Shown here piece after piece: positions 377 through 51,507 of a DNA stretch of 64,000 bases. The stretch is from an uncultured virus (IMG/VR IMGVR_UViG_2799112846_000001). Lineage: Duplodnaviria > Heunggongvirae > Uroviricota > Caudoviricetes. Every line of letters begins with the position of its first letter. The stretch's first letter is position 1. The stretch lies in IMG/VR virus record IMGVR_UViG_2799112846_000001, positions 1-64,000 of that record, one strand, 5' to 3'. The position numbers and the translations under genes are program-made. The notes under the pieces were generated by a model. That model worked only from the letters and a program-made list of their open reading frames with translations. It had not been told where the DNA came from and searched no databases.

Positions 377-405
377 TTTACACTTGACAATTTTATATGT
401 ATAAT
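377..405 (+). promoter_or_regulatory. sigmaA-like promoter
   Basis: TTTACA(377-382)-17 nt-TATAAT(400-405), upstream of AAAGGAGG and ORF 438. Confidence 0.6.
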
Positions 406-437
406 TATTATGTAAACTATAAAGGAGGTATATTCCA

Positions 438-2716: not shown

Positions 2717-2763
2717 GTAATACTTGCAAGATTACATAAATAAATTAAAAGGAGGATAATACT

Positions 2764-19321: not shown

Positions 19322-19726
19322 GTGAAACAAAGTGAATTATTTACTGTGGAAACTTCTAATGAAGATAAGAAATACAGTAAGAAGATTATGAAGCCTCAAT
19401 ATTTACCTAGTAATAAGATGCCAAAACTCGCTGAATTATATCAACCTAAAAAATATAGCAAACTTATTGCAACTATAAATAAATCAAATGTTACGGAAGA
19501 AGAAAAGAAGTTTCTAAGACTTGCCGCAACAAGACATATAATTTTCAACTATTCAAAGATAGCAGATTATTATGCTCATGCAAGTAAAGAGATGCAGGAA
19601 CTTATGGAGCAATCAGCATTAGTGATTATAGATATTGATGATGCAATCGCAAATGGATATGTAAAACTTTCAAAAGATATTAAACAGATACTTGAGGAGA
19701 GCGGGGATGATACAAATAAGAAATAA
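19322..19726 (+). CDS. phage protein partnered with the downstream glycosyltransferase
   Basis: FLRLAATRH..FNYSKIADYYAHA..EMQELME.SALVIID..AIANG. Confidence 0.65.
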   Translation: MKQSELFTVETSNEDKKYSKKIMKPQYLPSNKMPKLAELYQPKKYSKLIATINKSNVTEEEKKFLRLAATRHIIFNYSKIADYYAHASKEMQELMEQSALVIIDIDDAIANGYVKLSKDIKQILEESGDDTNKK

Positions 19727-20573
19727 TTTTGTAGCGTTTATATTAACGCACGGCAGACCTGACAAAGTATATACATATAATACTTTACGTAATAATGGTT
19801 ATACAGGACCTATAGTATTAGTACTTGATAATGAAGATGTGACTATTGATGAGTATAAACGTCTGTATGAAGCTAAGCCAAATACTGACATATATATATT
19901 TGATAAATTAGATATATCAAATCGTTATGACACTGTGGATAATAGTAGTGAAAGGCGGTCGATATTTTATGCTAGAAATGCGTGTTTTGAAATTGCTAAC
20001 GATTTGGGCTACGATTATTTTTTAGAATTGGATGACGATTACACATGTTTTAGAAGTCGTTTAGATAATAATGGTAAGTTTGCCACTAAATATCATAGAG
20101 ACCTAGATAGTCTGTTTGAGTGTGTATTACAATTTTTAGACACATCACAGGCTGACACTGTGGCATTATCGCAGACTGGAGATTTTATAGGAGGCATGGG
20201 CTCAAACGTATGGAAACAGCAGTTAGCAAGAAAAGCTATGAATTCATTTTTTTGCAATACACATAAGCCGTTTGCATTTATAGGCAGAGTTAATGAGGAT
20301 GTTAACACATATGTAAATCTAGGTGGTAAAGGTAAATTGTTTTTTACTATAGCGAACGCATCATTGGACCAGTTGCAAACGCAAGCTAATTCTGGAGGTA
20401 TGACGGAACTATATTTAAACTCAGGTACATACATCAAGTCATTTTTCACTATAATAACAAACCCGTCATGCACTAAAATATACACTATGGGAGATACACA
20501 CAAACGTATACATCATATAATAGATTGGGAACATGCTGTACCTAAAATAGTCAGCGGTGATTTTAAAAAGTAA
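19707..20573 (+). CDS. GT-A glycosyltransferase (TET-associated/GREB1-like DNA glycosyltransferase type)
   Basis: FILTHGRP; ARNACF; FLELDDDY; NEDV; QANSGGMT. Confidence 0.7.
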   Translation: MIQIRNNFVAFILTHGRPDKVYTYNTLRNNGYTGPIVLVLDNEDVTIDEYKRLYEAKPNTDIYIFDKLDISNRYDTVDNSSERRSIFYARNACFEIANDLGYDYFLELDDDYTCFRSRLDNNGKFATKYHRDLDSLFECVLQFLDTSQADTVALSQTGDFIGGMGSNVWKQQLARKAMNSFFCNTHKPFAFIGRVNEDVNTYVNLGGKGKLFFTIANASLDQLQTQANSGGMTELYLNSGTYIKSFFTIITNPSCTKIYTMGDTHKRIHHIIDWEHAVPKIVSGDFKK

Positions 20574-36016: not shown

Positions 36017-36020
36017 ATGT

Positions 36021-36093
36021 AGGGGTATAGCCAAACGGTCAAGGCATGTGATTTTGGCTCACAGATGTGCAGGTTCGAGTCCTGCTACCCTTG
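36021..36093 (+). tRNA. tRNA-Gln(TTG), CCA not encoded
   Basis: Acceptor AGGGGTA/TACCCTT; D-arm GCC..GGC; anticodon arm TGTGA-TTTTGGC-TCACA; T-arm GCAGG-TTCGAGT-CCTGC. Confidence 0.9.
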
Positions 36094-36107
36094 TTAAGGA
36101 GAATAAA

Positions 36108-36269: not shown

Positions 36270-36420
36270 AGAGCAGAAAGCAATAGTAGCCGGAAATGGA
36301 TTAGACCCTAAAGAATATCAATATGCTTATGATGTAAATGCAGACTATATAAAAGTAGTTAACATAATATCCGGCATAGAGAAGATGGTGAATGTTCACA
36401 AGAAGAAAAAGAGAGTGTAA
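36244..36420 (+). CDS. small hypothetical protein (not in ORF track)
   Basis: MKRGKKLTREQK...GLDPKEY; SD GAGG. Confidence 0.6.
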   Translation: MKRGKKLTREQKAIVAGNGLDPKEYQYAYDVNADYIKVVNIISGIEKMVNVHKKKKRV

Positions 36421-36421
36421 A

Positions 36422-36892
36422 ATGAACAAATATTTTGCTACACAAAAGAAGATACATTGTCAAGATACAGGTGAAATCTGTATAGGATATAATGAATATT
36501 TAAACAGTAAACATTGGGCATTATTAAGACAGCAATATATTCCTAAAGATATGAAATGTAGTATGTGTCATAATAAATGTGACAGTTTACAATTACACCA
36601 CTTAACTTATATGCACATTGGAAACGAGAAAGCAGATGATTTACTTCCATTATGTGAAAATTGTCATAAGCTGATACACAAAGTGCCAAAAGAAAATATA
36701 AAAAGTGAGTTATATGTTAATACTAAAAAATCACGAAGAAAGAAGAAACGACCTGTAAGAAAATGTAGTAATTGTAAAAGCTTTATTTATATAAAGATAA
36801 AAGGAAAAGAGCCTACATACGAGCCATATTGTAGATATAGTGCCAAGTTTAATCCGAAACAAGTGTGTGAGCATTTTAGACCTAAAAAATAA
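36422..36892 (+). CDS. HNH endonuclease
   Basis: YNEYL.S.HW..LR; CSMC..LQLHHLTY..GNE...DL..LCENCH..IH. Confidence 0.8.
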   Translation: MNKYFATQKKIHCQDTGEICIGYNEYLNSKHWALLRQQYIPKDMKCSMCHNKCDSLQLHHLTYMHIGNEKADDLLPLCENCHKLIHKVPKENIKSELYVNTKKSRRKKKRPVRKCSNCKSFIYIKIKGKEPTYEPYCRYSAKFNPKQVCEHFRPKK

Positions 36893-36946
36893 ATGACATT
36901 GTTTTAGTTTACATAATATGTTAAACTAATAGAAAGGAGATAGTGT

Positions 36947-37220: not shown

Positions 37221-37550
37221 ATGGCTAGTAATATCAAAACAATCAAAAAGTTACAGCTTGCTATTAACATGAATTGTCCGTTTAGAATACTCTATACGAC
37301 AAATCAATTCTATTCTGTGGATAAACAGATGCCTGTAACTAAGTATTGTTTAAGAAAAGCCGAACTAGATTATGATGCTCATAGAAGCAGTAGTGAGGAG
37401 ATTTTTAGTACCTATTCTCAGTTACAGATTATTCTGTATCTAAGAGATTTATGGTACACATGGTTGGGTAAGGAATTGCCAACTGATAATAAACTGTGGG
37501 AGAATATAAAGAAGCGAGACAACATAAATTATAAGGATGTGATTAAATGA
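37221..37550 (+). CDS. hypothetical protein upstream of terS
   Basis: SD AGGAG. Confidence 0.7.
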   Translation: MASNIKTIKKLQLAINMNCPFRILYTTNQFYSVDKQMPVTKYCLRKAELDYDAHRSSSEEIFSTYSQLQIILYLRDLWYTWLGKELPTDNKLWENIKKRDNINYKDVIK

Positions 37551-38134
37551 ATGACAATGAGATTATGCGTCTATCTAAGGATATAGTATCTAAGTATGAA
37601 TTAGGCAAAACACCTAAGATTAACAGATACAAGACAGACGCTAAGCCAATCACACAGACAGAAACATATAAAAAGCAGTATGTAACACATACCAGACACC
37701 CACTGACTTTTAGAGAAGCACGATTCATAGATACTTATATGGTTAACTATGATGGTCCAGAAGCAGTTGAGAAAGCAGGCTTTAAAGTCAAAGATAAAGG
37801 TAAGAAAGCTAGAGAGCTATTAAAGAAAGATTATATAGCAGATGAGATAGCATATAGAACGGAGTTATATGCTAGTGAATGTATAGCAGATAGACAGGAA
37901 GTACTTGAATACTTTACAGCAGTAATGCGTGGCGAAGTTAAAGACCAGTTTGACTTAGATGCTCCGTTAAGTGAACGTACTGCCGCCGCTAGAGAGTTAA
38001 AGAAAGTATTGATAGATGATGTAGAGCGTGGAAAGCAAGTACAGGCTCAACAAGTAGTAGTTAATATAGATATGAATAGAACAGAAGATACAGAAGACAA
38101 CCAGACAGTATCTATAGAACAAATATCCGACTGA
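37547..38134 (+). CDS. terS: terminase small subunit
   Basis: LT.RE.RF..Y...EAV.KAGF..ARELL...IADRQEVLEYFTAVMRGE..ERTAAAREL. Confidence 0.85.
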   Translation: MNDNEIMRLSKDIVSKYELGKTPKINRYKTDAKPITQTETYKKQYVTHTRHPLTFREARFIDTYMVNYDGPEAVEKAGFKVKDKGKKARELLKKDYIADEIAYRTELYASECIADRQEVLEYFTAVMRGEVKDQFDLDAPLSERTAAARELKKVLIDDVERGKQVQAQQVVVNIDMNRTEDTEDNQTVSIEQISD

Positions 38135-38167
38135 TTCATGCCGCCGTGATGTTTTTCCTTCTTATAA

Positions 38168-38213
38168 AGGGATAGCACTTACATTTATATATGTGGGTGC
38201 TATCTTCTTTTTA
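38168..38213 (+). terminator. intrinsic terminator
   Basis: GATAGCAC(T)TACAT/ATGTGGGTGCTATC stem followed by a T-run. Confidence 0.7.
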
Positions 38214-38530
38214 TGCTTAAAAATATTTCTACTGTAGGTCGAAGTCATTATAGTTCGTTGCACAGATGCGCAAGCGCACGTATATATAAAAGAGGACTTA
38301 ATTATAATAAATTAACATATGCACAAATATTCATATGATACTGTTGGTAGAAAAATCTGGATAAAAAGCATGGATAAACTGATTTTTTGCATATGTGAAA
38401 ACGTGCAAAAAGCTAGTATTTTAGCGTGTTTACAAGCGTTTTAACGTGTCTTTTTTGCACGTTTTCTACTATTATATAGCAAATCATAAAAACAGCTTTA
38501 AAACGCTTTAAAACGTGTTGGATAAATCAA

Positions 38531-38596
38531 TGACAGAATATTGATATAAGATGACAGATATTTGATATTTACAAACTTTTTTATCCACACTATACT
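38531..38596 (+). promoter_or_regulatory. cassette promoter with tandem ACAGA boxes (copy 1; others near 39147, 40946, 41858, 44553, and inverted at 44476-44540)
   Basis: Two ACAG boxes 20-21 nt apart, then TTTACA-17-TATACT. Confidence 0.7.
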
Positions 38597-38720
38597 TTAC
38601 TTAAAGAATATATCACGACATTGATAGGTTGTAGGATACAACTTCGATACAGAAGGACTTCCAAAGGAAGCCAACTACTACAGTTTATTAAAATAAAAGT
38701 GATAAGGAAAGGAGAATATT

Positions 38721-39146
38721 ATGAAACTATTAACAGAGAGAACAGAAATTGCCACGGCTATGAACTTTGGAAAGTATCCAGTATTAACACTTAATATGGA
38801 AGACCATGATGGATTTGAAGATACTACATATTGTATAGGATGTAATGTGCGTGTAGCTTTTGATACTAAGAATCATGGACAGCTACATACAGAAGGACAT
38901 ATCTATCTTGAAGGTGGAAAGGTGTGCATTTCTAATAATGCAGTATGCATACATAGCGACTTTGGATATAGTGATGTGATGGAAATGGCTAAGTGGGCAA
39001 ATACACCAATGCTTCACGCTGGACAGGAAGTAGTTGTAGTATTCGATTGGCCAACTGAGAGAGGTTGTGTAGTTAGAATGATGAAAGTTGGAGAAAGAAT
39101 TGACCCACATTGTATGACAGTTACTACTTTGGAAGATATTGACTGA
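38721..39146 (+). CDS. hypothetical protein
   Basis: SD GAAAGGAG. Confidence 0.75.
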   Translation: MKLLTERTEIATAMNFGKYPVLTLNMEDHDGFEDTTYCIGCNVRVAFDTKNHGQLHTEGHIYLEGGKVCISNNAVCIHSDFGYSDVMEMAKWANTPMLHAGQEVVVVFDWPTERGCVVRMMKVGERIDPHCMTVTTLEDID

Positions 39147-39262
39147 TGACAGAAAATTGATATAAAAGACAGAAATTGCTTATATACAACAATATTTTAC
39201 CACTATATACTTTAAGTATAAAGAAAAGCACAGAACAAGTGTAAAGAAAGGAGATTAAGGAT

Positions 39263-39601
39263 ATGAGAACAAACATGAACTATACAAATGAGATACTTGG
39301 AGGTTATCTTATGGATAACAATGAAGTAAATGAGGAGTATCTTGCAGAGGAGATTATAGACTATGGAGATGGAAAGGAGCATCTATATAATGACTGCTTC
39401 AATACTAGGAGAAAGACTAGAAATGTAGCAATTAACTGGATGATGGATTTCATCAATGACAAGCTACAGGATTGGGGCTATCGTGGATACTACGCTACAA
39501 ATAAGCAGGTAATGAAGTTCGATAAGGAACATGGAAATAGCTTAGAGCGTATGCTGGATATTGTTGAAGCACATATTAAGGAAGAAAGAGAGGAGGCATA
39601 G
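39263..39601 (+). CDS. hypothetical protein
   Basis: SD AGAAAGGAG. Confidence 0.7.
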   Translation: MRTNMNYTNEILGGYLMDNNEVNEEYLAEEIIDYGDGKEHLYNDCFNTRRKTRNVAINWMMDFINDKLQDWGYRGYYATNKQVMKFDKEHGNSLERMLDIVEAHIKEEREEA

Positions 39602-39605
39602 CATT

Positions 39606-39875
39606 ATGACAAAGGCAGAAAAGCAGAAGTATTTGGAAAAGAAATATATTGGGTATTATTCAGGATGGTCAGGAATCGAGATAAAGGATATTCAGTATGG
39701 AATAGATGATTATATCATCTTTGTAGCTGGAGCTTGGTACGGTAAGAAGTCTGTACATAAGAGCAAAGTATATTATACAGTTGGAATGAAGCCACCTTAT
39801 GGAGACAGTAGAGCGTATTTTAGATATAATGGAAATCGTATATATCTGGATGAATGTATTAGAGCAGGAATATAA
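39606..39875 (+). CDS. hypothetical protein
   Basis: SD GAGGAGG. Confidence 0.7.
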   Translation: MTKAEKQKYLEKKYIGYYSGWSGIEIKDIQYGIDDYIIFVAGAWYGKKSVHKSKVYYTVGMKPPYGDSRAYFRYNGNRIYLDECIRAGI

Positions 39876-39887
39876 GGGGGTGATAAC

Positions 39888-40331
39888 GTGGTAGAATATC
39901 TTACTCCAGAGATGCTGACTGCACTCATTGGAATAACTATACAAGAACGTAGTGATATGGAAGAATATAAGAAAAGAGGAAAAGGTCGTGTCATTCCGGA
40001 AATAAACAAACGTGGATACATCACTATGAATTATGCAGAATGGCTATGTAAGTATCTAAGACGTAAAATGAAAAATGGAGGACTGCTTAATCTACGAGCT
40101 ACAATAAATGCTTTGGAAAACACTGATTGGGCATATCACAGTTACAATCACTTGGCATATGCAACTAATGAGGATTTGAGTCGTATGCTTTTAAAGAACA
40201 AGTTTAAATATATGGACCCGGAAAATGCAAAGACTAGACTGGAAATGCTAGATGAGCAGGCAGAGTATTTAAGTAGAGCTACAACATGGTTAATAGGAGA
40301 ATTAGAAGGAATATTAGAAGGAGATAAATAA
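39888..40331 (+). CDS. hypothetical protein
   Basis: SD AAGGGGGTG; GTG start. Confidence 0.65.
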   Translation: MVEYLTPEMLTALIGITIQERSDMEEYKKRGKGRVIPEINKRGYITMNYAEWLCKYLRRKMKNGGLLNLRATINALENTDWAYHSYNHLAYATNEDLSRMLLKNKFKYMDPENAKTRLEMLDEQAEYLSRATTWLIGELEGILEGDK

Positions 40332-40332
40332 T

Positions 40333-40617
40333 ATGGCATATGGATTTAAGACGTTAGAAAATAAATATGGAATAACAGTAGTTGATGAGGGTGAGTTTTA
40401 TCACCCTCTCAAGAAATATTGGATAAAGACGTATAAGATTATATCAGCGGACGGATGTGTTTGGGAGAGAGGCTTACATGGTAGAGATGCTGTAAAAAGG
40501 GAAATATTAGCATGGGCAGACCATCTGTTAGCAATTAAAAATGGAACAGCTAAAGTACATAATATATCCGAAGCATATGCAGAGATATTAGGAAAAGATT
40601 ATATTAAGGAGGATTAG
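40333..40617 (+). CDS. hypothetical protein
   Basis: SD AAGGAG. Confidence 0.7.
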   Translation: MAYGFKTLENKYGITVVDEGEFYHPLKKYWIKTYKIISADGCVWERGLHGRDAVKREILAWADHLLAIKNGTAKVHNISEAYAEILGKDYIKED

Positions 40618-40621
40618 AACT

Positions 40622-40942
40622 ATGACAGCATATGGAAGAGAGTTAGACCGGGCAGTAAATATTCAGTTAATGATAGATAGAATTAAGCAAGAAGCAGAGG
40701 ACATGGAACAACTTGCAACTATGATAGGAGCGGAAGTACTAGCTCTGGCAGATTTATATATGGATAAGTATTATGAGATAACAATGTATCCTAAAGTGTT
40801 AGAGTTTCCGAATAAGGATTATGTAGCAGTGGGACAGATTGCAGTAACGGAAGAGGATTTTGATAATGATAATTATAAGTATATCATTCCATATTCAACT
40901 ATAGAGGATGGGGAATATGCAGTACATTATAAAGTTATGTAA
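40622..40942 (+). CDS. hypothetical protein
   Basis: SD AAGGAGG. Confidence 0.7.
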   Translation: MTAYGRELDRAVNIQLMIDRIKQEAEDMEQLATMIGAEVLALADLYMDKYYEITMYPKVLEFPNKDYVAVGQIAVTEEDFDNDNYKYIIPYSTIEDGEYAVHYKVM

Positions 40943-41058
40943 ACAACAGATATTTGATATAAAAGACAGTATGTTATGATTTACATACTGTCTTTTCCAC
41001 TATATAATATAATTAAGATAAACAATATGTAACGACATATTAAGAAAGGAGAACTAAT

Positions 41059-41517
41059 ATGAGAGGACATTATGAAACAACAAATAAGTGGGAAGTTTAT
41101 GAAGCAGGATTAGTTGAGACTGAGGACAGCTATCGAGTAAAAGTTGCTGAGAAGGAAATAGAAGTAGGAGATTTGATTACTACAATTCGTATTCCTGAAG
41201 AGCTAGAAGGAAAAGAGTTTGATGAGTATGTTATGGAACGTCTTATTGACAATACGTATATGCTTGTGGATGAAGCTCGTGGACATATCTATGTAGAGGG
41301 AGAAGACGGAGTAGTTATTGTTAGGGAAATAGAGACTGACAATCCAATATATGTTTTATTCCGACAGATAACATATAAAAAGCTAGATAAACAGACTGAG
41401 TTGAACCATAAGGTATATAATGCTTTAGGAGATATAGCATTTAAGACTGGATGCACTAAAGAGGAACTGGATACAGCCATTGCAAGTTTTAATAGAAAGT
41501 TTTATGAGGAGGTATAA
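41059..41517 (+). CDS. hypothetical protein
   Basis: SD AGAAAGGAG. Confidence 0.7.
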   Translation: MRGHYETTNKWEVYEAGLVETEDSYRVKVAEKEIEVGDLITTIRIPEELEGKEFDEYVMERLIDNTYMLVDEARGHIYVEGEDGVVIVREIETDNPIYVLFRQITYKKLDKQTELNHKVYNALGDIAFKTGCTKEELDTAIASFNRKFYEEV

Positions 41518-41521
41518 TATT

Positions 41522-41788
41522 ATGAAATATACGGAAGAATATAAAGCAATAAAAGATGGAAAGGATGTCACTGCGTTTGTAGAAAAGTATGGACTGATAG
41601 CTTTTCTTGATGAGTTTATGGAAGATGTAGAAGGCAGAAAAAAGCGTTATGAACAATGGAGAAAAGAAAATAAATGTTGCGAAAACTGCAAATGGAGAGA
41701 TGATGACGGTGTATGTGAGTATTGGGGAGATATAGTAGACACTGATTCTGTAGATGATGGCAAAGGAATATGTTCTGCTTGGAAATAA
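41522..41788 (+). CDS. hypothetical Cys-rich protein
   Basis: SD GAGGAGG; CCENCKW..C...C. Confidence 0.65.
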   Translation: MKYTEEYKAIKDGKDVTAFVEKYGLIAFLDEFMEDVEGRKKRYEQWRKENKCCENCKWRDDDGVCEYWGDIVDTDSVDDGKGICSAWK

Positions 41789-41801
41789 GCTGTTGTATAA
41801 A

Positions 41802-41851
41802 TTGCACAAAAGCACTGGAAAATGAAAAATCTGGTGCTTTTGTGCATTTTT
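41802..41851 (+). terminator. intrinsic terminator
   Basis: TGCACAAAAGCAC/GTGCTTTTGTGCA stem followed by a T-run. Confidence 0.7.
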
Positions 41852-41980
41852 ACTATATGACAGAAAATTGATACAATTCGCAGAAATTCGCTATATACAA
41901 GTACAAATGTCCACTGTATAATATAATTAGAAATAAAGAATAGATAACGATATAAGTTATCACAGAAAGGAGAAGTAGTT

Positions 41981-42184
41981 ATGAAGTACATAATGCTTGG
42001 AGAGTTTTCAATAATAAAAAATTATCAGGATGATATGGAAGTTAAAGTGTTGGCAGAAGTTGAAGCTGACAATGCAAAAGAAGCTAGGAAAATAGCTATG
42101 GAATTGGATGCTGTGAAAGAAGCAAGAAAGCAGGATAATCTTGAAGGACTTTATATTGAGTTAGCAGATTATAAGGAAGTGTAA
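41981..42184 (+). CDS. hypothetical protein
   Basis: SD AGAAAGGAG. Confidence 0.7.
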   Translation: MKYIMLGEFSIIKNYQDDMEVKVLAEVEADNAKEARKIAMELDAVKEARKQDNLEGLYIELADYKEV

Positions 42185-42324
42185 GAAAGGAGAATTAGTT
42201 ATGACTTTTAGAGATTGGTTAAATAAAACATTTTATGAGGATTTTGATGCAAGCGGACTTACTGATGAGGAATATTATGAACTGGAAGATTTATATTATG
42301 CAGAGATGGAAAAGGAGAACAGCT

Positions 42325-42678
42325 ATGACGAATAAGGAAATTATTGCAAATGAGCAGGAAAGATTAGTGGCTGAAGGAGTATTGAAATATACAGGAAGAG
42401 TTTTACAGCTAGAAATGGATGATGGTGAGATTCTTGAGATTAAAGAGATTCAGCCTATTCATACATACAATGCTTGGAAGTCTTTAGGCTACCAGGTAAA
42501 GAAAGGAGAAAAATGTGTGGCAAAGTTTCCTATTTGGAAGTATTCAACTAAGAAACGTAAGAATGAGGATACTGGAGAAAATGAAGAGGTTGTTGACGCA
42601 CTGCATGGACACTGCTTTATGAAGGTATCTGCCTTCTTTACAAATGAGCAGGTAGAAAAGATAGAGGAGGCTGAGTAG
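42325..42678 (+). CDS. ArdC-like ssDNA-binding domain protein (putative anti-restriction)
   Basis: HTYNAWKSLGYQVKKGEK...IW...FMK..AFF..EQV; SD AAAGGAG. Confidence 0.65.
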   Translation: MTNKEIIANEQERLVAEGVLKYTGRVLQLEMDDGEILEIKEIQPIHTYNAWKSLGYQVKKGEKCVAKFPIWKYSTKKRKNEDTGENEEVVDALHGHCFMKVSAFFTNEQVEKIEEAE

Positions 42679-42783
42679 ATGGCAAACATAGGATGGTTCA
42701 TAATAGCATTTATAATATATCTAATAAAGCGTGAGAATGGATTTAATATCATGTTAGAAAAATGTAGAAAGGAGATATAGATT

Positions 42784-43002
42784 ATGTATTTAGATGAGAA
42801 GGAAAAATGGTATAAAAGAATGATGGATGAAAGAGAAGAGCAGGACGGGGTTCTTCATCTTGAATATGAAATAAGTAATGGAAATAGATGCAATATCTAT
42901 AATACAAATGGACAAGCAATTCTTATGGGATTAACTTTAGAGCAAGCATATTGGGTAGTAATGGGAATCGAAAACTTTTGGTCAAAGATAGAAAGGAGAT
43001 AA
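42784..43002 (+). CDS. hypothetical protein
   Basis: SD AGAAAGGAG. Confidence 0.7.
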   Translation: MYLDEKEKWYKRMMDEREEQDGVLHLEYEISNGNRCNIYNTNGQAILMGLTLEQAYWVVMGIENFWSKIERR

Positions 43003-43006
43003 TACT

Positions 43007-43210
43007 ATGAGTTATGAAAGGAAAACATATGATGTCTATGAGATAATCACAGACTATGGATATGGAGAAGAAGTTGAAGCAACCTACGCAAGTGCGGCGG
43101 AGATGAGAGCAGACTATAAGATATATTTGGAAGAAAGAAGAAAAGGGTATTTGCCAAATCTAATATCTATTAGGGCAAGAAAACGTAGAGTAAGAAAGGA
43201 GATAGCATAA
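43007..43210 (+). CDS. hypothetical protein
   Basis: SD AGAAAGGAG. Confidence 0.7.
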   Translation: MSYERKTYDVYEIITDYGYGEEVEATYASAAEMRADYKIYLEERRKGYLPNLISIRARKRRVRKEIA

Positions 43211-43368
43211 TGGAGATTATTGTATTAAAAGATGGAACAAAGATTCCAGGAACACTGATTCATCAGTATGGCGCATATGAAGGCGGGATGAGATATATAT
43301 TTAAGACAACTATTGGAGAAATAAGATGTATTAAAAAAGATGGTAAGTATATAGAGTATGTAGCATAA
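43210..43368 (+). CDS. hypothetical protein (52 aa, not in ORF track)
   Basis: SD AGAAAGGAG; TAATG overlap. Confidence 0.6.
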   Translation: MEIIVLKDGTKIPGTLIHQYGAYEGGMRYIFKTTIGEIRCIKKDGKYIEYVA

Positions 43369-43389
43369 AAAGAAAGGAGAATTAAGATT

Positions 43390-43911
43390 ATGGAATTATC
43401 AGTAGCAAAATTAAATCGAGCATTGGAGTATTTTATAATCGGGGAGAATTATAAATATAGTCCATCACAGTTTATGTTTGATTATAAATCAGACAAGGAT
43501 TATGCCTATATTATTATAGATACTCACTATATAATCCGGGCCCCTAAAAAAGATTTGGAGTTAAATAAAGTATTAGAAGCAGATACACTATATCCTGCAA
43601 TAAAAAGGGATATAAATATAGAGCGTATGATAACATCAATAATGGAAGATAAAACTCACGTAGATTTTAAGTATAATGGACTAAAAGAAGTGGGTGCAGA
43701 TAATAAGGAGTTAGTAGAGTTTATTTCAGGTGATAATAAGAAATATATAAATCCTAAGTTCTTTAAACAATATTATAACCATAATATAATAGCAAATAAA
43801 ATACCAGATAATATAACATTCTCAGGTATGGCTTCATATAGACAGCCACTAATTATGTGGGAGAATGATGAAGCAATAGCAGTATTTATGCCAATAGATA
43901 TAGCTCAATAA
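43390..43911 (+). CDS. hypothetical protein
   Basis: SD AGAAAGGAG. Confidence 0.7.
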   Translation: MELSVAKLNRALEYFIIGENYKYSPSQFMFDYKSDKDYAYIIIDTHYIIRAPKKDLELNKVLEADTLYPAIKRDINIERMITSIMEDKTHVDFKYNGLKEVGADNKELVEFISGDNKKYINPKFFKQYYNHNIIANKIPDNITFSGMASYRQPLIMWENDEAIAVFMPIDIAQ

Positions 43912-44142
43912 AAAAAAATCGGCGGGATAATAAAGATAAGCAATAAGTAGGATAGATAGTTAGTATATATAAAAACTAATATATCTATCCTATTACAATA
44001 TACTGATATAATAAATAAAGTAAATAATAACAATTCACCATTAAGTATATAAAGTATATATAATATAGATAAATATTGCTTATATGGAATTTACACACTA
44101 GGAAACAGGAAATTCCCGTACAGACAGCAAGCGAAATATGAA

Positions 44143-44158
44143 TGTTCCACGTGAAACA
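44143..44158. promoter_or_regulatory. parS site 1 (ParB/Spo0J binding)
   Basis: TGTTCCACGTGAAACA matches the consensus TGTTNCACGTGAAACA. Confidence 0.9.
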
Positions 44159-44184
44159 TTTCAAGCTAAATATTGTTAGCAGGA

Positions 44185-44200
44185 TGTTCCACGTGAAACA
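44185..44200. promoter_or_regulatory. parS site 2
   Basis: Identical TGTTCCACGTGAAACA 42 nt downstream of site 1. Confidence 0.9.
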
Positions 44201-44264
44201 TTTTCTTCTATTATATATAGGTATTTTTATATAGTGAAAATAAATATGGTAAAGGACGAAGTCA

Positions 44265-44426
44265 TTAAAGTTCGTTGCGTGTGCGTGTAATATAAAAGGA
44301 GCGGGACTCTACCCCGCTCCCATTACATATGTGATGCTGTACATATGTATGTCTATGCATATATAGCAAGTTTACATAATATCCCGGGCAGTCGCCCAGG
44401 GGTTGGAGTTTCCATAATGTGTTCAT
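44265..44426 (-). CDS. small minus-strand ORF (53 aa)
   Basis: Minus-strand SD AGAAAGGAG (44433-41) and an inverted ACAG-box promoter; coding status uncertain. Confidence 0.4.
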   Translation of the reverse strand: MNTLWKLQPLGDCPGYYVNLLYMHRHTYVQHHICNGSGVESRSFYITRTRNEL

Positions 44427-44669
44427 ACTTTTCTCCTTTCTCATGTTCGTGAACATGCATATATTTCTACTATATATTATAACTTGGAGTTTACATAATT
44501 GATATATTAAAAAACTGTCATTTATATAAAGATTCTGTCATTTGAAAAGTTCACAGATATTCGATATAAATGACAGAATTATTGTATACTTATATAATTT
44601 TCCTTGATATAATAAAGTCAGAAAATAAATAAAAAAGTTTACAGCGCACAGCGCGGAAAGGAGTCTATT

Positions 44670-45077
44670 ATGACAAATAATATTTTTACAAAGGAAGTTT
44701 TAGCAAGATGCGAAGCAAATACAGTTAAGCTCACAACAGCACAGAAACTTGAATTACATCATGATTTAGTGCTTGACGTTTTAGCACAGTATGACAACAT
44801 TACTTATAAAGATGAGTATCAGCTTAATCCGAACACTAAAAAACATAAGTTCACAGTACAGGCGGAAGATTCAAATGCAAATATATTTGAAGTGTTCTAT
44901 ACTTCAAAAGATAAGTATCATGTATGCACTAGAATAAATCTTAGCAAATACAGCGAAGATGCACAGTATCACGAAAAATGGGATATGTTCTGGGATTTAT
45001 ATGTAGATACTAGCGACAGACTTTCAAAAGTACTAGATTTCATTTTTGAAGCGAACAACGCACAGCTAGAGGCATAA
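44670..45077 (+). CDS. hypothetical protein
   Basis: SD GAAAGGAG; own promoter and terminator. Confidence 0.7.
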   Translation: MTNNIFTKEVLARCEANTVKLTTAQKLELHHDLVLDVLAQYDNITYKDEYQLNPNTKKHKFTVQAEDSNANIFEVFYTSKDKYHVCTRINLSKYSEDAQYHEKWDMFWDLYVDTSDRLSKVLDFIFEANNAQLEA

Positions 45078-45090
45078 GTTTACATAATCA

Positions 45091-45126
45091 GCCCCCACTC
45101 GGGAAAAACGAGTGGGGGGATTTTTA
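45091..45126 (+). terminator. intrinsic terminator
   Basis: CCCCCACTCG/CGAGTGGGGG stem followed by a T-run. Confidence 0.8.
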
Positions 45127-45353
45127 TGTCTGGCTCCCTGTCGTTCTCAAAAAATACTGAGTAAAAACTTCAATGTATTGGGGCTCGATTTTCTACACAA
45201 TTAAGGGTCTTGTATTGTCTCGCAAAAAATACTGAGCAGTTCTATGATTGTATTGTCGCAAGAACTTCCATGATGCATCTGTATCATGGTCTTTTTTGCT
45301 TGTGAAAGTTTACATAACGTGATATATTGTTTTCATAGGGAGAATAAGAAGAT

Positions 45354-46655
45354 ATGATAAATATAAAGATGCAAGATTTAATAATACCTGCTTATGATGA
45401 AGTATTTAAAGATATTATGAATCATGGTCATACTCATTACTGTCTTAAAGGGGGTAGAGGTTCTACTAAGAGTTCATTTATCGGAGGTATTTCTATTCCG
45501 TTAGTTATTATGAATAACCCACTTGTTAATGCAGTGTGCTTTCGTAAAGTAGGCAATACTGTGCAGAATAGTATATATTCTCAGGTTACATGGGGAATAT
45601 ATCAAATGGGTTTGCAGGACTTGTTTCATATACCTAAGACTTACTCTAACCCTATTGTGTATAAGCCAACCGGGCAGAAGATATTCTTCATGGGTATGGA
45701 TGACCCTAATAAAGTAAAGTCTATCAAGGTTGAGAAGGGATATATAGGAATTACTTGGTGGGAAGAGCTAGACCAGTTTGCTGGCGAAGCGGAATTGCGT
45801 AAAGTATTGCAGTCTACCATGAGAGGTGGAGAGTTATTTTGGGACTTTCGTACTTTCAATCCACCTATTTCTATTGATAATTGGGCTAATGAGTATGCAG
45901 AAGAAAGTCTTGACAGAGAAAATACTCTTGTAGTGTCAAACACTTATTTGGATGTGCCTAAGTCGTGGCTAGGTCAGCCGTTCATAGAGGAAGCTGAGGA
46001 CCTCAAACGCATTAACGAGAAAGCATATCAGCATGAGTATTTAGGTATGCCGGTTGGAACTGGTGGTGGAGTATTTCCTAATGCTTGCGACCTCGATATG
46101 CGTCAGCAAGTACCTGTATATGACTTTGACGGAAATATACTTGAGTATACAGAGATGTGGAAGACTTTCGATAAGATTTATAACGGCATAGATTGGGGCT
46201 TTGCTAAGGACCCATTTAGATTTGTGCGTATGCATTATGACCCTAAGAAGCTGGATTTATATATCTTTAGAGAATACAGCACTGTGCAGACACGAAACCA
46301 GGTAGTTTTTGATACTCTGTATAATGAAAAGAAGATGATAGATAGAGCAGAGTTAGTTACTGCTGATAGCGCAGAGATGAAATCAGTAGCGGACTTTAAA
46401 GCATATGGAGCATATATACGAGGAGCAGTCAAAGGACCAGATTCTGTTAGATATGGTATAAAGTGGTTACAAGGTCTTAATCATATCTATATAGACAGAC
46501 GAATGTGCCCTAAGACTTACAAAGAGTTTACTCACTATGAGTATCTCCAAGACAGAGAAGGTAACTGGATTAGTGATTATCCAGATGAAAATAACCACAG
46601 CATAGACGCTACAAGGTACGCATTGGAAAGATATTGCAATAGACGAGGTAATTAA
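45354..46655 (+). CDS. terL: terminase large subunit (PBSX/SPP1-like)
   Basis: KGGRGSTKSS, WWEE, FNPP, GIDWGF, DSAE, NHSIDATRY. Confidence 0.95.
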   Translation: MINIKMQDLIIPAYDEVFKDIMNHGHTHYCLKGGRGSTKSSFIGGISIPLVIMNNPLVNAVCFRKVGNTVQNSIYSQVTWGIYQMGLQDLFHIPKTYSNPIVYKPTGQKIFFMGMDDPNKVKSIKVEKGYIGITWWEELDQFAGEAELRKVLQSTMRGGELFWDFRTFNPPISIDNWANEYAEESLDRENTLVVSNTYLDVPKSWLGQPFIEEAEDLKRINEKAYQHEYLGMPVGTGGGVFPNACDLDMRQQVPVYDFDGNILEYTEMWKTFDKIYNGIDWGFAKDPFRFVRMHYDPKKLDLYIFREYSTVQTRNQVVFDTLYNEKKMIDRAELVTADSAEMKSVADFKAYGAYIRGAVKGPDSVRYGIKWLQGLNHIYIDRRMCPKTYKEFTHYEYLQDREGNWISDYPDENNHSIDATRYALERYCNRRGN

Positions 46656-46658
46656 GAT

Positions 46659-46910
46659 ATGGCAAATAAAGCAACTGGAATCAAATCACGACGCAACAAG
46701 TCGTGGAAAGGACAAGACACATCAGGTGTCTACGGTGCGAATAAGCGAGGTAGCAGTAATCGAGGTAAGAATTATAATACCGGCGATAATACTCTAAAGA
46801 AAACAAAGGGTATTGATGATTTGCAGGGCGAGACTAAAGAGAAGCGTGGACGCACTAAAAGTAATGCACCTAGAGGTAAGAAGAAAGGTACAGGAAAGGG
46901 ACATAACTAA
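46659..46910 (+). CDS. small basic Gly/Lys/Arg-rich protein
   Basis: Composition; SD GAGG. Confidence 0.6.
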   Translation: MANKATGIKSRRNKSWKGQDTSGVYGANKRGSSNRGKNYNTGDNTLKKTKGIDDLQGETKEKRGRTKSNAPRGKKKGTGKGHN

Positions 46911-47557
46911 TGCCGCAGTTATTAAATACATCTGTAAGAGAATATATTGGTGTTGGTGAATATGACATACCAGCTATTCAGCCCGTATATGAGATGCCTA
47001 AGATAAATGATTGGTTAGAGTTTGAGAAAGCAAAGCGAGCCAGACATAAATCTAAAGCATCCGGAGTGCATTTCTTTGAGTATGATTTTAAGTTTGAGTG
47101 TGTATGGAATTTTCCAGATAGATATGTTGATGTATTGTCACAATATGGGGCTGTCATAACACCCGATTTTTCTTATTATATAGATTTTCCAAAAGCGTTA
47201 AGAGTCTTTAATAAATATCGTATGCATTGGATTACAGCATATTGGCAGGAGCGGGGCATTACAGTGATACCACTCATACGATACGGTTTGGAAGAAGATT
47301 GGGATTGGTGTTTCGACGGATACCCTATAGACAGTATTGTAGCAGTATCAGCAGTAGGTGGTGGAAAATCAGCAGAACACATAGAAGCCGGTATGCGTGG
47401 ATATGAAGAGATGCTGAAACGACTCCAACCAAGAGAGATACTTGTATATACTAATACATTTGATTATCTACCGGGTAATGTAACATACATAAAGTATGAT
47501 ATAGATAAGCACATAAAAGGTATTGACGATACAAATAAGGAGGAAGATGATGATTAG
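46910..47557 (+). CDS. DUF4417-like protein
   Basis: GEYDIP, GVHFF.YDFKFE.VWN.P, ITPDFSYY.D.P, WQERGITVIP, CFDG. Confidence 0.75.
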   Translation: MPQLLNTSVREYIGVGEYDIPAIQPVYEMPKINDWLEFEKAKRARHKSKASGVHFFEYDFKFECVWNFPDRYVDVLSQYGAVITPDFSYYIDFPKALRVFNKYRMHWITAYWQERGITVIPLIRYGLEEDWDWCFDGYPIDSIVAVSAVGGGKSAEHIEAGMRGYEEMLKRLQPREILVYTNTFDYLPGNVTYIKYDIDKHIKGIDDTNKEEDDD

Positions 47558-49400
47558 TTTTTCTCAAATCTTAGAAAAATTAAAGGAGGTATTTGCTAAG
47601 ATGATAGGCACCAAATCAATAGAAAACGTACTACATGTAGCACCTGTTATGTCGAGCGCAATGCAGAATCAAATACAGCTATGGGAAGCTATGTACACAG
47701 GACATTCTCCGTGGTTAAAGTCAGCAACCTTTGATGACCCTAGTGTTATAGTTGGGCTTGGACTTCCACAGCAGATAGCAAACGAGAAAGCACGTACAGC
47801 ACTGCTTGAGTTTAAGAGTGAAGTAACTACTCCAATGAAGGAAGTTGAGACACCTAGAGAGAACGCAGGCGAGAACATTTTAGAGCGTTTTAAACAGGAT
47901 AATCAAGCAGATACGACAAATAATACAACTAACGCTACAGAAAGCAAAGAAAACGCTTCTAGCAATGCTACAGACGCTAATACAAATCAGTTTAGCAGAT
48001 ATAATACATCACAGTTTCATCCACAAGCTACAGTTAAAGAATTAGTGCCAAAAGGTCCAACACAAAGGGCTGAGTATCTTAACAAGACATATCAAAAGAA
48101 GGTACTTAGAAAACTAAGAACACAAATGGAATGTGGTATCGCATTAGGTGGACTTGTAATAAAGCCATATGTAATAATGAATGATACAGACGATAACGAC
48201 ACTAATGAAAATGCACTGACACTAAACACTAAGTTAGATAAAGCTGATATGGAGTTTGACTTTGTATATGCCAATAACTTTTATCCATTAGCATTTAATG
48301 GTAGCGGAGATATTACAGAAGCGGCATTTATTGAGCGTAAAGTTGATAAAGATATAACATACAGTAGATTAGAGCATCATAAGTACGCTAATCACAAAGT
48401 TACTATAACAAATATGGCTTTTAAATCTACAGCAAAGACACAGAACAGCAACAATGATTTAGGACAGCAGATACCGCTTAAATCAGTACCTGAGTGGCAG
48501 AATATAGAAGAAACTACTATTATAAAGAATGTAGACAGACTTTTGTTTGCATATTTCAAAATGCCAGAAGCTAATACAGTAGATATTCATAGTCCACTAG
48601 GTGTTAGTGGTTTTGATAAAGCTATTCACCTTATCGAAGAAGCCGACAAGCAATTCAGCAGACTTCTTTGGGAGTACGAAGGTGGTGAACTAGCTATTGA
48701 TATAGACAGAGATGCTTTACGTGATACTGAGGTTAGAAATGATAAGGGTGAACTTATCATTACGTCTAAGATGGGACATTTACAGCAGAGACTTTATAGA
48801 CCAGTAGATATTGGAGCAGACGGAGATACATATAATCAATATGCACCAGTTCTACGTGATGCGAGCTATATTAGTGGACTTAATACTATACTGATGCATA
48901 TAGAAGATGTAACAGGACTTTCACGAGGAACACTTTCTCAGGTAGATACAGCAGAAGCAAGAACAGCTACCGAGCTTAGAATATTGAAGCAGAGAAGTTA
49001 CCAGACAAATGCTGAGATTCAAAAAGCTATGCAGATATGTCTTGAAGACCTAGTATATGTAATGAATGTACTTTGTGAGTTATATGACATCACACCTGCC
49101 GGGGAGTATGAAGTATCTTTCGAGTGGGATGACAGTATCTTAGTTGACGTAGAAGAAGAACTTGGAAAGAGAATGACGCTTCTACAGAATGGTCTTATGA
49201 GTAAGAAAGAACTACGTATGTGGTACATGGGCGAGACTGAGAGACAAGCTAGAGAAGCACTGTTAGAAGTACAGGAAGAGAATAGAGTAGCAGTTGAAGA
49301 TAATATAATGACGCAGATGGATATGGGACAACTCGGATTAGATGATACACTTCAAAGAAGTCCTGATAGTTTTAAGCAGGGAATGAACAATGCTCAATGA
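47547..49400 (+). CDS. portal protein
   Basis: Position after terL; YSRLEHH, SPLGVS, ARTATE, FEWDDSI. Confidence 0.85.
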   Translation: MMISFSQILEKLKEVFAKMIGTKSIENVLHVAPVMSSAMQNQIQLWEAMYTGHSPWLKSATFDDPSVIVGLGLPQQIANEKARTALLEFKSEVTTPMKEVETPRENAGENILERFKQDNQADTTNNTTNATESKENASSNATDANTNQFSRYNTSQFHPQATVKELVPKGPTQRAEYLNKTYQKKVLRKLRTQMECGIALGGLVIKPYVIMNDTDDNDTNENALTLNTKLDKADMEFDFVYANNFYPLAFNGSGDITEAAFIERKVDKDITYSRLEHHKYANHKVTITNMAFKSTAKTQNSNNDLGQQIPLKSVPEWQNIEETTIIKNVDRLLFAYFKMPEANTVDIHSPLGVSGFDKAIHLIEEADKQFSRLLWEYEGGELAIDIDRDALRDTEVRNDKGELIITSKMGHLQQRLYRPVDIGADGDTYNQYAPVLRDASYISGLNTILMHIEDVTGLSRGTLSQVDTAEARTATELRILKQRSYQTNAEIQKAMQICLEDLVYVMNVLCELYDITPAGEYEVSFEWDDSILVDVEEELGKRMTLLQNGLMSKKELRMWYMGETERQAREALLEVQEENRVAVEDNIMTQMDMGQLGLDDTLQRSPDSFKQGMNNAQ

Positions 49401-50595
49401 TGTAGATATTGACAACTTAATACAGCCCTTTATTGATAGACAGATACAGTTAGAAAGCTATGTCATTAACACTATTGCAACACGAGTAAAAGAAGTTGGT
49501 ACATTGTCTAAGACAGACGTGTACCGACTTCAACAATTACTTAAAATAGGTAGTGATGTTAGAAGTATCAATAAACAGATAGCTACAGTGTTAAATATCC
49601 AAGAGACACAAGTTAAGAAAATGATAAAGGACGTAGCAGTAGATACTTATAAAGGAGCACGTCCGTTCTATGATTATAGACGAACTGCACAAGTACCTTA
49701 TGAAACTAATAAACGACTACAGCAAAGTGTTAATGCTATAGGAAAACAGACCGCAGATACGTTTAAGAATCTGTCTAACTCTAAAGCAACTGGATTTTAT
49801 ATTCGTGATGCCAAGAATCGAACTACATTAAAGTTTCAGTCTGTAACTGACACCTATCAAAGCGTTATAGATGAGGCAGTTCAATCTGTACAGACCGGAG
49901 TTTTGGATTTTGATAGTGCTATGAGAAGAACACTAAAGCAGTTAAACGACAGTGGGCTACGTAGAGTTTATTGGGATAGCGGACATACAAGACGCTTAGA
50001 TAGCACAGTTCGTATGAATATATTAGGTGGAGTACGTCAAATCAATCAAAAGGTGCAACAGCAGATAGCAGATGAAATAAACGCAGATGGAATAGAATTA
50101 TCAGCACATAGTTTTTCAGCACCTGACCATGAGCCAATACAAGGACATATATTCACGCTAGAAAACTTTGATAAGCTCCAAAATGAAAGAGCTTTTGAAG
50201 ATACATATGGTCATAAGTTTAGTGCGATAAGACGTCCTATAGGTGAGTGGAACTGTAAGCATTTAACTCAGGCTGTTGTTATAGATGCACATACACCTAT
50301 ATGGAGTTTAGCTGAATTAGAAGAACTGAAAAAAGCTAATCATGACGGTTATACTACTAAAGACGGAAAGCATTTAACTATGTATGAATGTACTCAAGTA
50401 CAGCGTAGCTATGAGACATCTATTCGATATGCTAAAGAGGGATATATAATGGCTAAAAATGCGGGTAATGAAAAGCTCATGGACGAGTATGAAGCAAAGA
50501 TTAGCCAGCTCAATAATGAGTATAGACAGTTCAGTAAAGACTGTGGTTTATCTATGCAGAAGAAACGTGCTTCTGTCAGTGGTTTTTATAAATAG
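49390..50595 (+). CDS. minor capsid (head morphogenesis) protein
   Basis: ELSAH..APDHEPIQG, WNCKH. Confidence 0.8.
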   Translation: MLNDVDIDNLIQPFIDRQIQLESYVINTIATRVKEVGTLSKTDVYRLQQLLKIGSDVRSINKQIATVLNIQETQVKKMIKDVAVDTYKGARPFYDYRRTAQVPYETNKRLQQSVNAIGKQTADTFKNLSNSKATGFYIRDAKNRTTLKFQSVTDTYQSVIDEAVQSVQTGVLDFDSAMRRTLKQLNDSGLRRVYWDSGHTRRLDSTVRMNILGGVRQINQKVQQQIADEINADGIELSAHSFSAPDHEPIQGHIFTLENFDKLQNERAFEDTYGHKFSAIRRPIGEWNCKHLTQAVVIDAHTPIWSLAELEELKKANHDGYTTKDGKHLTMYECTQVQRSYETSIRYAKEGYIMAKNAGNEKLMDEYEAKISQLNNEYRQFSKDCGLSMQKKRASVSGFYK

Positions 50596-50609
50596 CATGG
50601 ATAAAAAAT

Positions 50610-50640
50610 AGTTTACATAATAATTATTATGTCGTATAAT
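50610..50640. promoter_or_regulatory. dif-like 11-6-11 site overlapping a sigmaA promoter
   Basis: Reverse complement reads ATACGACATAA-TAATTA-TTATGTAAACT; TTTACA(50612)-17-TATAAT(50635). Confidence 0.55.
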
Positions 50641-50838: not shown

Positions 50839-51507
50839 ATGACAATTAAAGAGATTTTTGAGAAGTCTACAGAACCGCTTACTTATGAGAGTTTTGAAAA
50901 GCTGATGAAAGAAAGCGGAGCAAAGTTTGCAGATTTATCTGAGGGTAACTATGTTAGCAAAGATAAGTTTGACAACGAAGTAGCCGGTAAGGAGGGTCAA
51001 ATCAATCAGCTTAATGATACACTCAAAGCTAGAGATAAGGATTTGAAAGACTTGAAAGCACAGCTTAAGGAAGCTGGCACTGATGCAGATAAACTAACTG
51101 AGCTAGAGACACAGTTGGGTAATCTACAAACACAGTATAAGCAGGATACAGATAACTATAAAGCACAGTTATCAAAACAGGCTTATGAGTTTGCAGTAAA
51201 AGAGTTTGCAAGCGGAAAGAAGTTTTCAAGTAATGCGGCTAAACGAGATTTTATCAACTCTATGCTTGCCAAAGAATTGAAGATGGAAGGCGATAAGATT
51301 TTAGGAGCAGAGGATTTTGTTACAACTTATTCGGCAGATAATGCAGATGCATTTGTAGTTGAACAAGTAGAGAAGAAAGAACCAGAAGCACCAAAGCCAC
51401 AATTCTCTAATTCAGTGAGTCCGGATACAAACAATCAACCGACAAACGATAATCCGTTCGGATTCCATTTTAATGCTATCCGACAAAATCCAAATCAAAA
51501 TAAGTAA
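50839..51507 (+). CDS. capsid scaffolding protein
   Basis: YVSKDKF, coiled coil, immediately before the major capsid gene. Confidence 0.85.
   Translation: MTIKEIFEKSTEPLTYESFEKLMKESGAKFADLSEGNYVSKDKFDNEVAGKEGQINQLNDTLKARDKDLKDLKAQLKEAGTDADKLTELETQLGNLQTQYKQDTDNYKAQLSKQAYEFAVKEFASGKKFSSNAAKRDFINSMLAKELKMEGDKILGAEDFVTTYSADNADAFVVEQVEKKEPEAPKPQFSNSVSPDTNNQPTNDNPFGFHFNAIRQNPNQNK

Follow-up and report, generated by a model that had tools for sequence, protein, structure and literature searches.

Host-type parS sites and a XerD-arm word at the late promoters of an integrase-free Lachnospiraceae-type siphophage: a candidate late-gene operator

XDS, the sites at which XerD acts on the chromosome of Bacillus subtilis, are half-sites without a recombination partner. 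According to a review, XerD keeps Smc-ScpAB off the terminus (PMC11894783). The docking of host ParB at parS sites, taken by itself, is a known trick: phage phi29 carries five parS sites read by Spo0J, and Spo0A boxes repress phi29 promoters (PMC2731898). Both kinds of site, parS and an XerD-type half-site, are found in the stretch of DNA described here (the window), which comprises bases 1–64,000 of contig C29 (66,480 bp) in assembly G000 and belongs to a Lachnospiraceae-type gut siphophage without an integrase. The window carries two exact parS copies and repeated copies of an 11-base word, AGTTTACATAA, which corresponds, in reverse complement, to the right arm of the B. subtilis dif sequence given in PMC3025954 and is referred to below as the arm. 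The reading proposed is that parS likely loads ParB and that the arm serves as an operator of the late genes, with host XerD as the most likely protein bound there to hold these genes down, and a probability of roughly 0.4 is given to it. In the literature searched, with most subscription papers outside reach, no account was found in which XerD arms serve as operators in a phage or in which a phage carries parS together with XerD arms.

Exact copies of the arm number seven in the window, against 0.18–0.30 expected under Markov models, and matches with at most one mismatch number 13, against a shuffle mean of 4.45 and a shuffle maximum of 11; the other 2.38 Mb of G000 hold one exact copy, with 1.7–2.4 expected. 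A quick terminase tree of 97 rows, with Shimodaira–Hasegawa-like approximate likelihood-ratio (SH-aLRT) support only and no bootstrap, places the window in a 16-row clade with a support of 100. Five further records of this clade carry 6–11 arm copies each and no copy of the reversed control word, and two of them, which are complete, have terminal repeats. Over 51 sites the consensus reads AGTTTACATAAT(AT), i.e., the B. subtilis XerD arm followed by the beginning of the spacer; a second arm is not a general feature. A preliminary description of the window had reported four arms downstream of the parS pair, and these are present at 44369, 44488, 45077, and 45307, none farther than 1.12 kb from the second parS. 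It had, however, overlooked two exact copies, at 408 (−) and 36906, as well as near copies at 2729, 40935, and 44407, and the arms are therefore not restricted to the region downstream of parS. WalR/PhoP repeats, cre, TnrA, Rex, and the DnaA box, compared by their generally known motifs, were set aside as the identity of the arm since the arm sites are unpaired. A virome-wide excess of tandem arms was likewise rejected, with approximately 130 stretches against approximately 150 for the reversed word.

The placement of the arms was scored in C29 and the five clade records, with an exact arm counted within 260 bp upstream of an operon. The late-type operons (lysis, open reading frame (ORF) 2764, the terminase genes terS and terL, and scaffold) have an exact arm in 25/26 genome-by-operon cases, and in all 26 if one mismatch is allowed. 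By contrast, eleven replication and recombination genes in the six genomes have an exact arm upstream in 0/56 cases (4/56 at one mismatch), and the arm is missing from all seven consensus promoters of the C29 replication region. Across the terminase tree, 14 of the 15 clade rows that include upstream DNA have an arm no more than 130 bp from terL, compared with 0/81 rows outside the clade. The arm has no fixed place with respect to the promoter. In the lysis promoter, it occupies the −35 in G042 and G044, lies in the spacer in G045, and is reversed over the start region in C29 and G043. The terL arm has a forward orientation in one subclade and the reverse in the other, and both orientations are present in G046. 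Such shifting of position and orientation is the behavior of an operator, unlike that of a promoter hexamer. Two marks of an operator are thus found: one word stands mostly over the predicted sigma-A promoters of the late-type operons and is absent, as an exact copy, upstream of the replication and recombination genes scored, the operons having been picked after the motif was seen, and its position and orientation are independent of promoter geometry.

The link to XerD comes from host-family chromosomes. Among 120 Lachnospiraceae genomes, 57 encode a canonical XerD (best TIGR02225 E-value at most 1e-90). The word RGTTTACATAAY occurs 613 times in these 57 genomes (control word, 232) and 90 times in the 63 without XerD (control word, 222). 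At least six copies are present in 33/57 genomes with XerD versus 1/63 without it, a comparison in which the control word shows no difference; the sole XerD-less genome at this level is 90% complete and has spo0A. Furthermore, a Xer-family gene lies inside 14 of 121 chromosomal tandem-arm loci, in most of which the arms are upstream of spoIIM-xerD. The contrast in copy number and the tandem copies near Xer genes together indicate that the arm word goes with XerD in Lachnospiraceae. A perfect arm–arm palindrome stands 3′ of the XerS-like gene in the XerD-encoding genome G023. No clustering of chromosomal arms at the terminus was seen in two complete chromosomes. Some XerD-encoding chromosomes (G114, G088, G082, G140, and G149) hold 29–82 lone-arm copies, and in the complete G463 seven of eight copies lie within 0.85 Mb of dnaA.

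The parS pair noted in the preliminary description is real, as two exact copies. Their consensus is that of the two parS sites adjoining parAB on host contig C14, and the binned host genome G000, at 100% completeness, contains parAB and smc besides its two parS sites. parS is found in 9/10 clade loci with at least 3 kb of sequence upstream of terL. The absence of partition proteins holds as well: the sole trace is a weak "ParB-like" PHROG label on the ORF at 19322–19726, which gains no backing from Pfam, NCBIfam, or PDB. Homologues of this ORF also occur in the parS-free relatives G434, G432, and G442, and it was not taken as a partition protein. The part of the earlier proposal that had the phage borrowing host ParB and SMC is favored by the conserved host-type parS without a phage ParAB, by the presence of ParB and SMC in the host, and by the phi29 precedent; by this analogy, the parS pair likely loads host ParB in the phi29 style. 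Separately, many viral contigs of 11–12 kb (L003–L080) were seen to carry a parS pair approximately 200–300 bases from both ends, and their size and symmetry suggest small linear phages.

As judged from the sequences, it is fairly probable that a bound protein, whichever the reader, blocks sigma-A polymerase at the late promoters; that this reader is XerD is a tentative proposal at somewhat less than even odds. In the proposed mechanism, the protein would sit on the half-site as a non-recombining monomer in the path of sigma-A RNA polymerase. If it is host XerD, the packaging, head-tail, and lysis operons would be held down. ParB on parS would position or segregate the DNA of the phage in the manner of phi29. 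Where a host lacks XerD, as the evidenced one does, nothing would occupy the operator, and the late promoters would stand open. A fuller version, in which XerD is a late-gene repressor that reports the state of the host, ParB takes the phage genome along into the daughter cell or the forespore, and growth is fully lytic in hosts that lost XerD, so that a phi29-like dormancy switch would be made of chromosome-maintenance proteins alone, is unlikely; XerD would report host state there because xerD sits behind a spoIIM-like gene in Lachnospiraceae.

Several observations weigh against a XerD-read late operator. Neither G000 nor eight congeners encode a canonical XerD above the TIGR02225 cut-off, and G000 shows no match to the spoIIM-like gene located before xerD elsewhere in the family. 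The intergenic DNA of G000 contains no exact arm and 26 copies at one mismatch against a control mean of 21, which gives no sign of a regulon. The correlation between word and XerD across chromosomes ignores relatedness, and a crude call puts 14 of 19 copies examined on XerD-encoding chromosomes within ORFs, which means that XerD does not in general bind promoters on these chromosomes. On the phage side, the five late operons were chosen with the motif already in view and the six genomes are kin, and some control windows have no promoter. The core of the arm, TTTACA, is a common −35 in C29; a palindrome includes the ORF 2764 site, where no consensus promoter was seen; and some arms are located at terminators or within the parS region, which is non-coding. 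Finally, G461, a relative outside the clade, has eight arms, none of them found upstream of terL or ORF 36947.

The only evidenced host is tied to the phage clade by a spacer of its CRISPR array and by the bin. One of the 19 spacers of G000 matches the clade capsid gene, with one mismatch in G042 and L155, two in G044 and L152, and three in C29 and G043. Bins are weak evidence for a host, as members of the phage family also occur in Bacteroidota bins, and contig depth in run X1, a possible source sample (9.9–11.2 for the phage, 11.6–11.9 for the host), was not used as evidence because binning selects equal depth and the depth values are not copy numbers. For CRISPR hosts outside the genus, two candidates per genome were scored, and none of 27 loci from 26 family genomes lay in an array. 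No Spo0A above the cut-off was found in G000 or five congeners, and the basis for spore entrapment of the phi29 type is absent from these genomes.

In place of a canonical XerD, the host genus has a 353-residue recombinase closest to XerS (187 of 267 bits, below the XerS cut-off), which is present in 39/41 genomes searched and whose gene lies at the maximum of the guanine–cytosine (GC) skew in G000. Upstream of this gene is a 12-6-12 palindrome that is unique in G000 (G000:C23:89,790; loci L191–L220). It is kept in eight of nine genus loci, the ninth being cut short, and similar palindromes stand near the gene in approximately 9/21 other loci. No copy was found in 16 phage records, with one loose match in C29, inside a gene. 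By its position beside the XerS-like gene at the skew switch, the palindrome is a candidate dif of the Lachnospirales host. A dif-like match on host contig C27 was rejected as apparent coding DNA away from the skew switch. The recognition helix of Xer proteins has a role in reading the site. The host XerS-like protein was judged unlikely to read the arm, given that the adjacent palindrome and the predicted recognition helix differ from those of XerD. A 305-residue Xer-like gene of G000 was also rejected as the reader; it lies in a variable island and is missing from eight congeners, and nine family genomes with only this Xer-like type hold three copies of the word against 38 of the control. 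The XerD-mediated SMC unloading and XerCD resolution proposed in the preliminary description are thus unavailable in the evidenced host, which has no detectable canonical XerD and a different dif candidate. A wider host range among XerD-encoding Lachnospiraceae would reconcile a XerD reader with this host.

The strongest alternative, itself rather unlikely, keeps the arm as a late-gene operator and gives it to a phage-encoded regulator or another host protein, so that its equality with the XerD arm is due to chance. A phage-encoded reader would work in the evidenced, XerD-less host, and two other repeated promoter words indicate that the phage runs several regulons. Sister phages also carry Xer-family genes. 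The syntenic circular sister phage G002:C3, from the same host genus, has neither parS nor promoter arms and encodes a XerA-like tyrosine recombinase (G002:C3:17289-18299) beside the lysis cassette, between tail fiber and holin, where C29 has ORF 438; PF00589 matches also occur in relatives G430 and G438. An anti-correlation of arms with phage-encoded Xer, an idea drawn from the sister phage, was dropped since only 2/32 further records have PF00589. The earlier statement that the phage has no recognizable repressor is unsafe: C29 encodes several helix-turn-helix proteins, and the predicted product of ORF 44670 models as a fold like T4 MotA-C/YjbR (Z score 9.6, root-mean-square deviation 2.6, 99 aligned residues; predicted local distance difference test score 71, from four sequences); an atlas search with this ORF gave a best score of 0.83, a lead only. 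This ORF was found only in G043 among 16 other records, which counts against it as the reader. Furthermore, no DNA-binding gene is common to the arm-bearing genomes and missing from the arm-free ones, helix-turn-helix proteins whose recognition helices are alike are found in the two groups, and a phage-encoded reader would make a 12–14-base match to a word that tracks XerD a coincidence.

It is distinctly unlikely that the arms are non-regulatory, XDS-like docking sites through which XerD coats the infecting genome and unloads or excludes parS-loaded SMC or shields the DNA, with promoters serving only as free space. This idea draws on the action of XerD at XDS (PMC11894783), on the dispersed chromosomal copies, mostly within ORFs, on the four arms within 1.12 kb of the phage parS, and on an arm 4–5 kb from parS in two of five XerD-encoding or complete chromosomes (G463 and G129). 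The equally free space at replication promoters is, however, unused (0/56), XerD is absent from the evidenced host, and the two kinds of site also part company: arms occur without parS in reach in L151 (94% terL identity) and L805 and without parS in G461, and parS occurs without an arm in 5/81 rows outside the clade.

The same separation bears on the preliminary description, which had joined parS, XerD arms, and dif into one module that would maintain the phage as a plasmid-like prophage through ParB/SMC loading, XerD unloading, and XerCD resolution. All three words are present, integrase and ParAB are absent from C29 and the five clade records, the contig is circular, and no integrated clade member was found at the host dif or elsewhere in a limited sample. 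The lack of an integrase is confirmed, since G000 has eight PF00589 and two PF00239 matches of which none lies on C29, bases beyond the window included; a tyrosine recombinase was likewise not found in the five clade records, and the serine recombinase search covered G000 and four clade records only. This lack is nevertheless the norm of the family and is not offset by the sites: among near-complete wider relatives, 12/14 lack a PF00589 gene and parS and have at most two arms, which does not support the sites as a substitute for integration. The suggested check of co-occurrence was negative, with an arm in 1/150 viral parS-pair loci (permuted controls, mean 1.7) and parS in 1/131 tandem-arm loci among the matches listed, full flanks being at hand for 80 loci of each sample. 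From their distribution in the phage family, parS and arms are gained and lost separately, as separate acquisitions. C29 moreover encodes all that replication requires (polymerase, primase, helicase, clamp, and loader), as in lytic phages, and the dif part fails, as detailed below; the module as proposed is very unlikely.

The dif-like site at 50610 shows an 11-6-11 outline with an XerD arm matching at 11/11 positions, and this part of the claim stands. The other arm matches at only 4/11 (B. subtilis) or 5/11 (Escherichia coli) positions, and the site coincides with an 11-of-12 sigma-A promoter whose −35/17/−10 layout is kept in 13/13 rows. A second TTATG at this promoter is six bases off in seven rows, eight bases off in three, and absent in three; a conserved dif was rejected since neither the second arm nor the 6-bp spacer is kept across the clade. 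An arm-N6-TTAT arrangement was found in none of 24 family genomes, and the site agrees with the host palindrome at 8/28 positions. The site is thus the predicted head-operon promoter with its proposed operator and not a resolution site, and dimer resolution by XerCD loses its footing in a host genus that uses a single XerS-like recombinase and a different palindrome. A paired Xer-type binding site at the scaffold promoter is possible in part of the clade, judging from the spacing of the second TTATG. That the word is a strong-promoter element (an extended −35) spread by duplication, with no protein reader, is highly improbable: it does contain TTTACA and form the −35 at the scaffold promoter in 13/13 rows and at some lysis promoters, but it is kept when reversed, in the spacer, or downstream of the −10, and arm-free relatives use TTTACA/TTTACT promoters without it.

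The genome of C29 is near-complete, as the preliminary description had it, with 66,480 bp, overlapping ends, and no bacterial flank. Its last 107 bases match bases 334–440, and bases 1–99 are found again near the contig end; the contig is therefore circular, and the join carries an alternative cassette. The genes lie on a single strand throughout. Replication genes encode an SNF2 helicase, an initiator, DnaC, DnaB, a primase, SSB, PolA, a clamp with its loader, and RecA, and late-type genes encode a split terminase, portal, head and tail proteins, an amidase, and a holin. The features discussed are collected in Table 1.

Table 1. Coordinates of parS copies, arm words, promoters, and selected genes in the window.
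Feature	Position	Strand	Basis or remark
Lysis operon predicted promoter (TTTACA-17-TATAAT, 377-405); arm 408-418 (−) over start region	377-418	+	
Arm, one mismatch, 34 bp upstream of ORF 2764, inside palindrome; exact in 4 relatives	2729-2739	+	
ORF, 134 residues, weak PHROG label "ParB-like"	19322-19726	+	E-value 4e-9, residues 52-118 only
XerD-arm word 40 bp upstream of operon ORF 36947 - ORF 37221 - terS	36906-36916	+	exact
Terminase small subunit (terS)	37547-38134	+	profile annotation
Arm in early region upstream of promoter at 40980; 10-base core exact	40935-40945	−	
parS copy 1, exact host-type	44143-44158	+	consensus match
parS copy 2, exact host-type	44185-44200	+	consensus match
XerD-arm word adjoining G+C hairpin; one-mismatch copy at 44407	44369-44379	+	exact
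XerD-arm word upstream of ORF 44670 promoter region	44488-44498	+	exact
ORF 44670, 135 residues, candidate regulator	44670-45077	+	model resembles T4 MotA C-terminal/YjbR double-wing fold
XerD-arm word at ORF 44670 stop, just 5′ of terminator-like hairpin	45077-45087	+	exact
terL-portal operon predicted sigma-A promoter (TTGTGA-17-TG-TATATT), arm 45307-45317 in spacer	45300-45328	+	
Terminase large subunit (terL)	45354-46655	+	profile annotation
Scaffold-capsid-tail operon predicted promoter (TTTACA-17-TATAAT, 50612-50640), arm over −35; earlier dif-like site, 50610-50637	50610-50640	+	
Head scaffolding protein, first gene of head-tail operon	50839-51507	+	profile annotation

Two further promoter-associated words were recorded. 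The first, ATGACAGAA..TTGATAT, is often paired approximately 21 bases apart and marks early-region promoters. It occurs at 38530, 38551, 39146, 41857, 44534 (−), and 44570 and also in G042, G043, and G044, and its highest density is upstream of ORF 44670, the product of which is modeled with a likeness to the DNA-binding domain of T4 MotA; an early regulon is possible. The second belongs to a third promoter class before replication genes (5821, 7571, 15771, 21719, 27396, and 35893), with approximately ten copies in G002:C3; the −10 plus the following bases (TATAATGTTTAAT) are common to C29 and this sister phage. An Rfam scan returned one tRNA only, tRNA-Gln(TTG) at 36020–36094, directly 3′ of a replication-class promoter. 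Close by, an HNH-like gene (36392–36892) is missing from a variant contig of run X14 (joint 36407–36904) and from 16/16 relatives. Approximately 7 kb of variable early genes separate terS and terL (37547–45354), a gap of approximately 0.6 kb in G002:C3, and short repeats at 45140–45240 may mark the packaging start. Genes resembling glycosyltransferase, nucleotidyltransferase, and TET-associated glycosyltransferase genes lie among the replication genes (13450–15490 and 19322–20573), suggesting a possible sugar modification of the DNA.

If the XerD-read operator is correct, a host site-specific recombinase would be a transcription factor for a phage, and an integrase-free phage would obtain lysis-or-wait control from DNA sites alone. 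Approximately half of the sampled Lachnospiraceae keep XerD beside an XerS-like recombinase that appears to own dif, and lone XerD arms accumulate in these genomes only (at least six copies in 33/57 versus 1/63); the phage would then also offer a clean test system for the role of XerD in such hosts.

Among the described systems, streptococcal XerS/difSL (PMC5357621) resembles the host side, where one 353-residue recombinase stands at the skew switch with an adjacent palindrome, although the phage has no copy of the palindrome and the host protein falls below the XerS cut-off. dif/XerCD and the attP sites of integrative mobile elements exploiting Xer (IMEX) share with C29 one arm identical to that of B. 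subtilis dif and the 11-6-11 outline at 50610 (PMC5357621, PMC3025954), whereas C29 has no conserved XerC arm, no integrated copy was found in the limited sample, and its host genus lacks both an XerC/XerD pair and such a dif. The arms of C29 are lone XerD-type half-sites like XDS, which were compared by description. XDS, however, are chromosomal and act at the terminus, whereas the arms of C29 stand on phage promoters and the Lachnospiraceae word is not terminus-clustered in the two complete chromosomes. There is a likeness in outline to phi29 (and Nf), with host parS purely in cis and no phage ParAB, and with sites for a host protein over promoters that would suppress the lytic program. The evidenced host of C29 has no Spo0A. 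phi29 is a small protein-primed phage with Spo0A boxes at early and late promoters, whereas C29 carries the XerD arm at its late-type operons.

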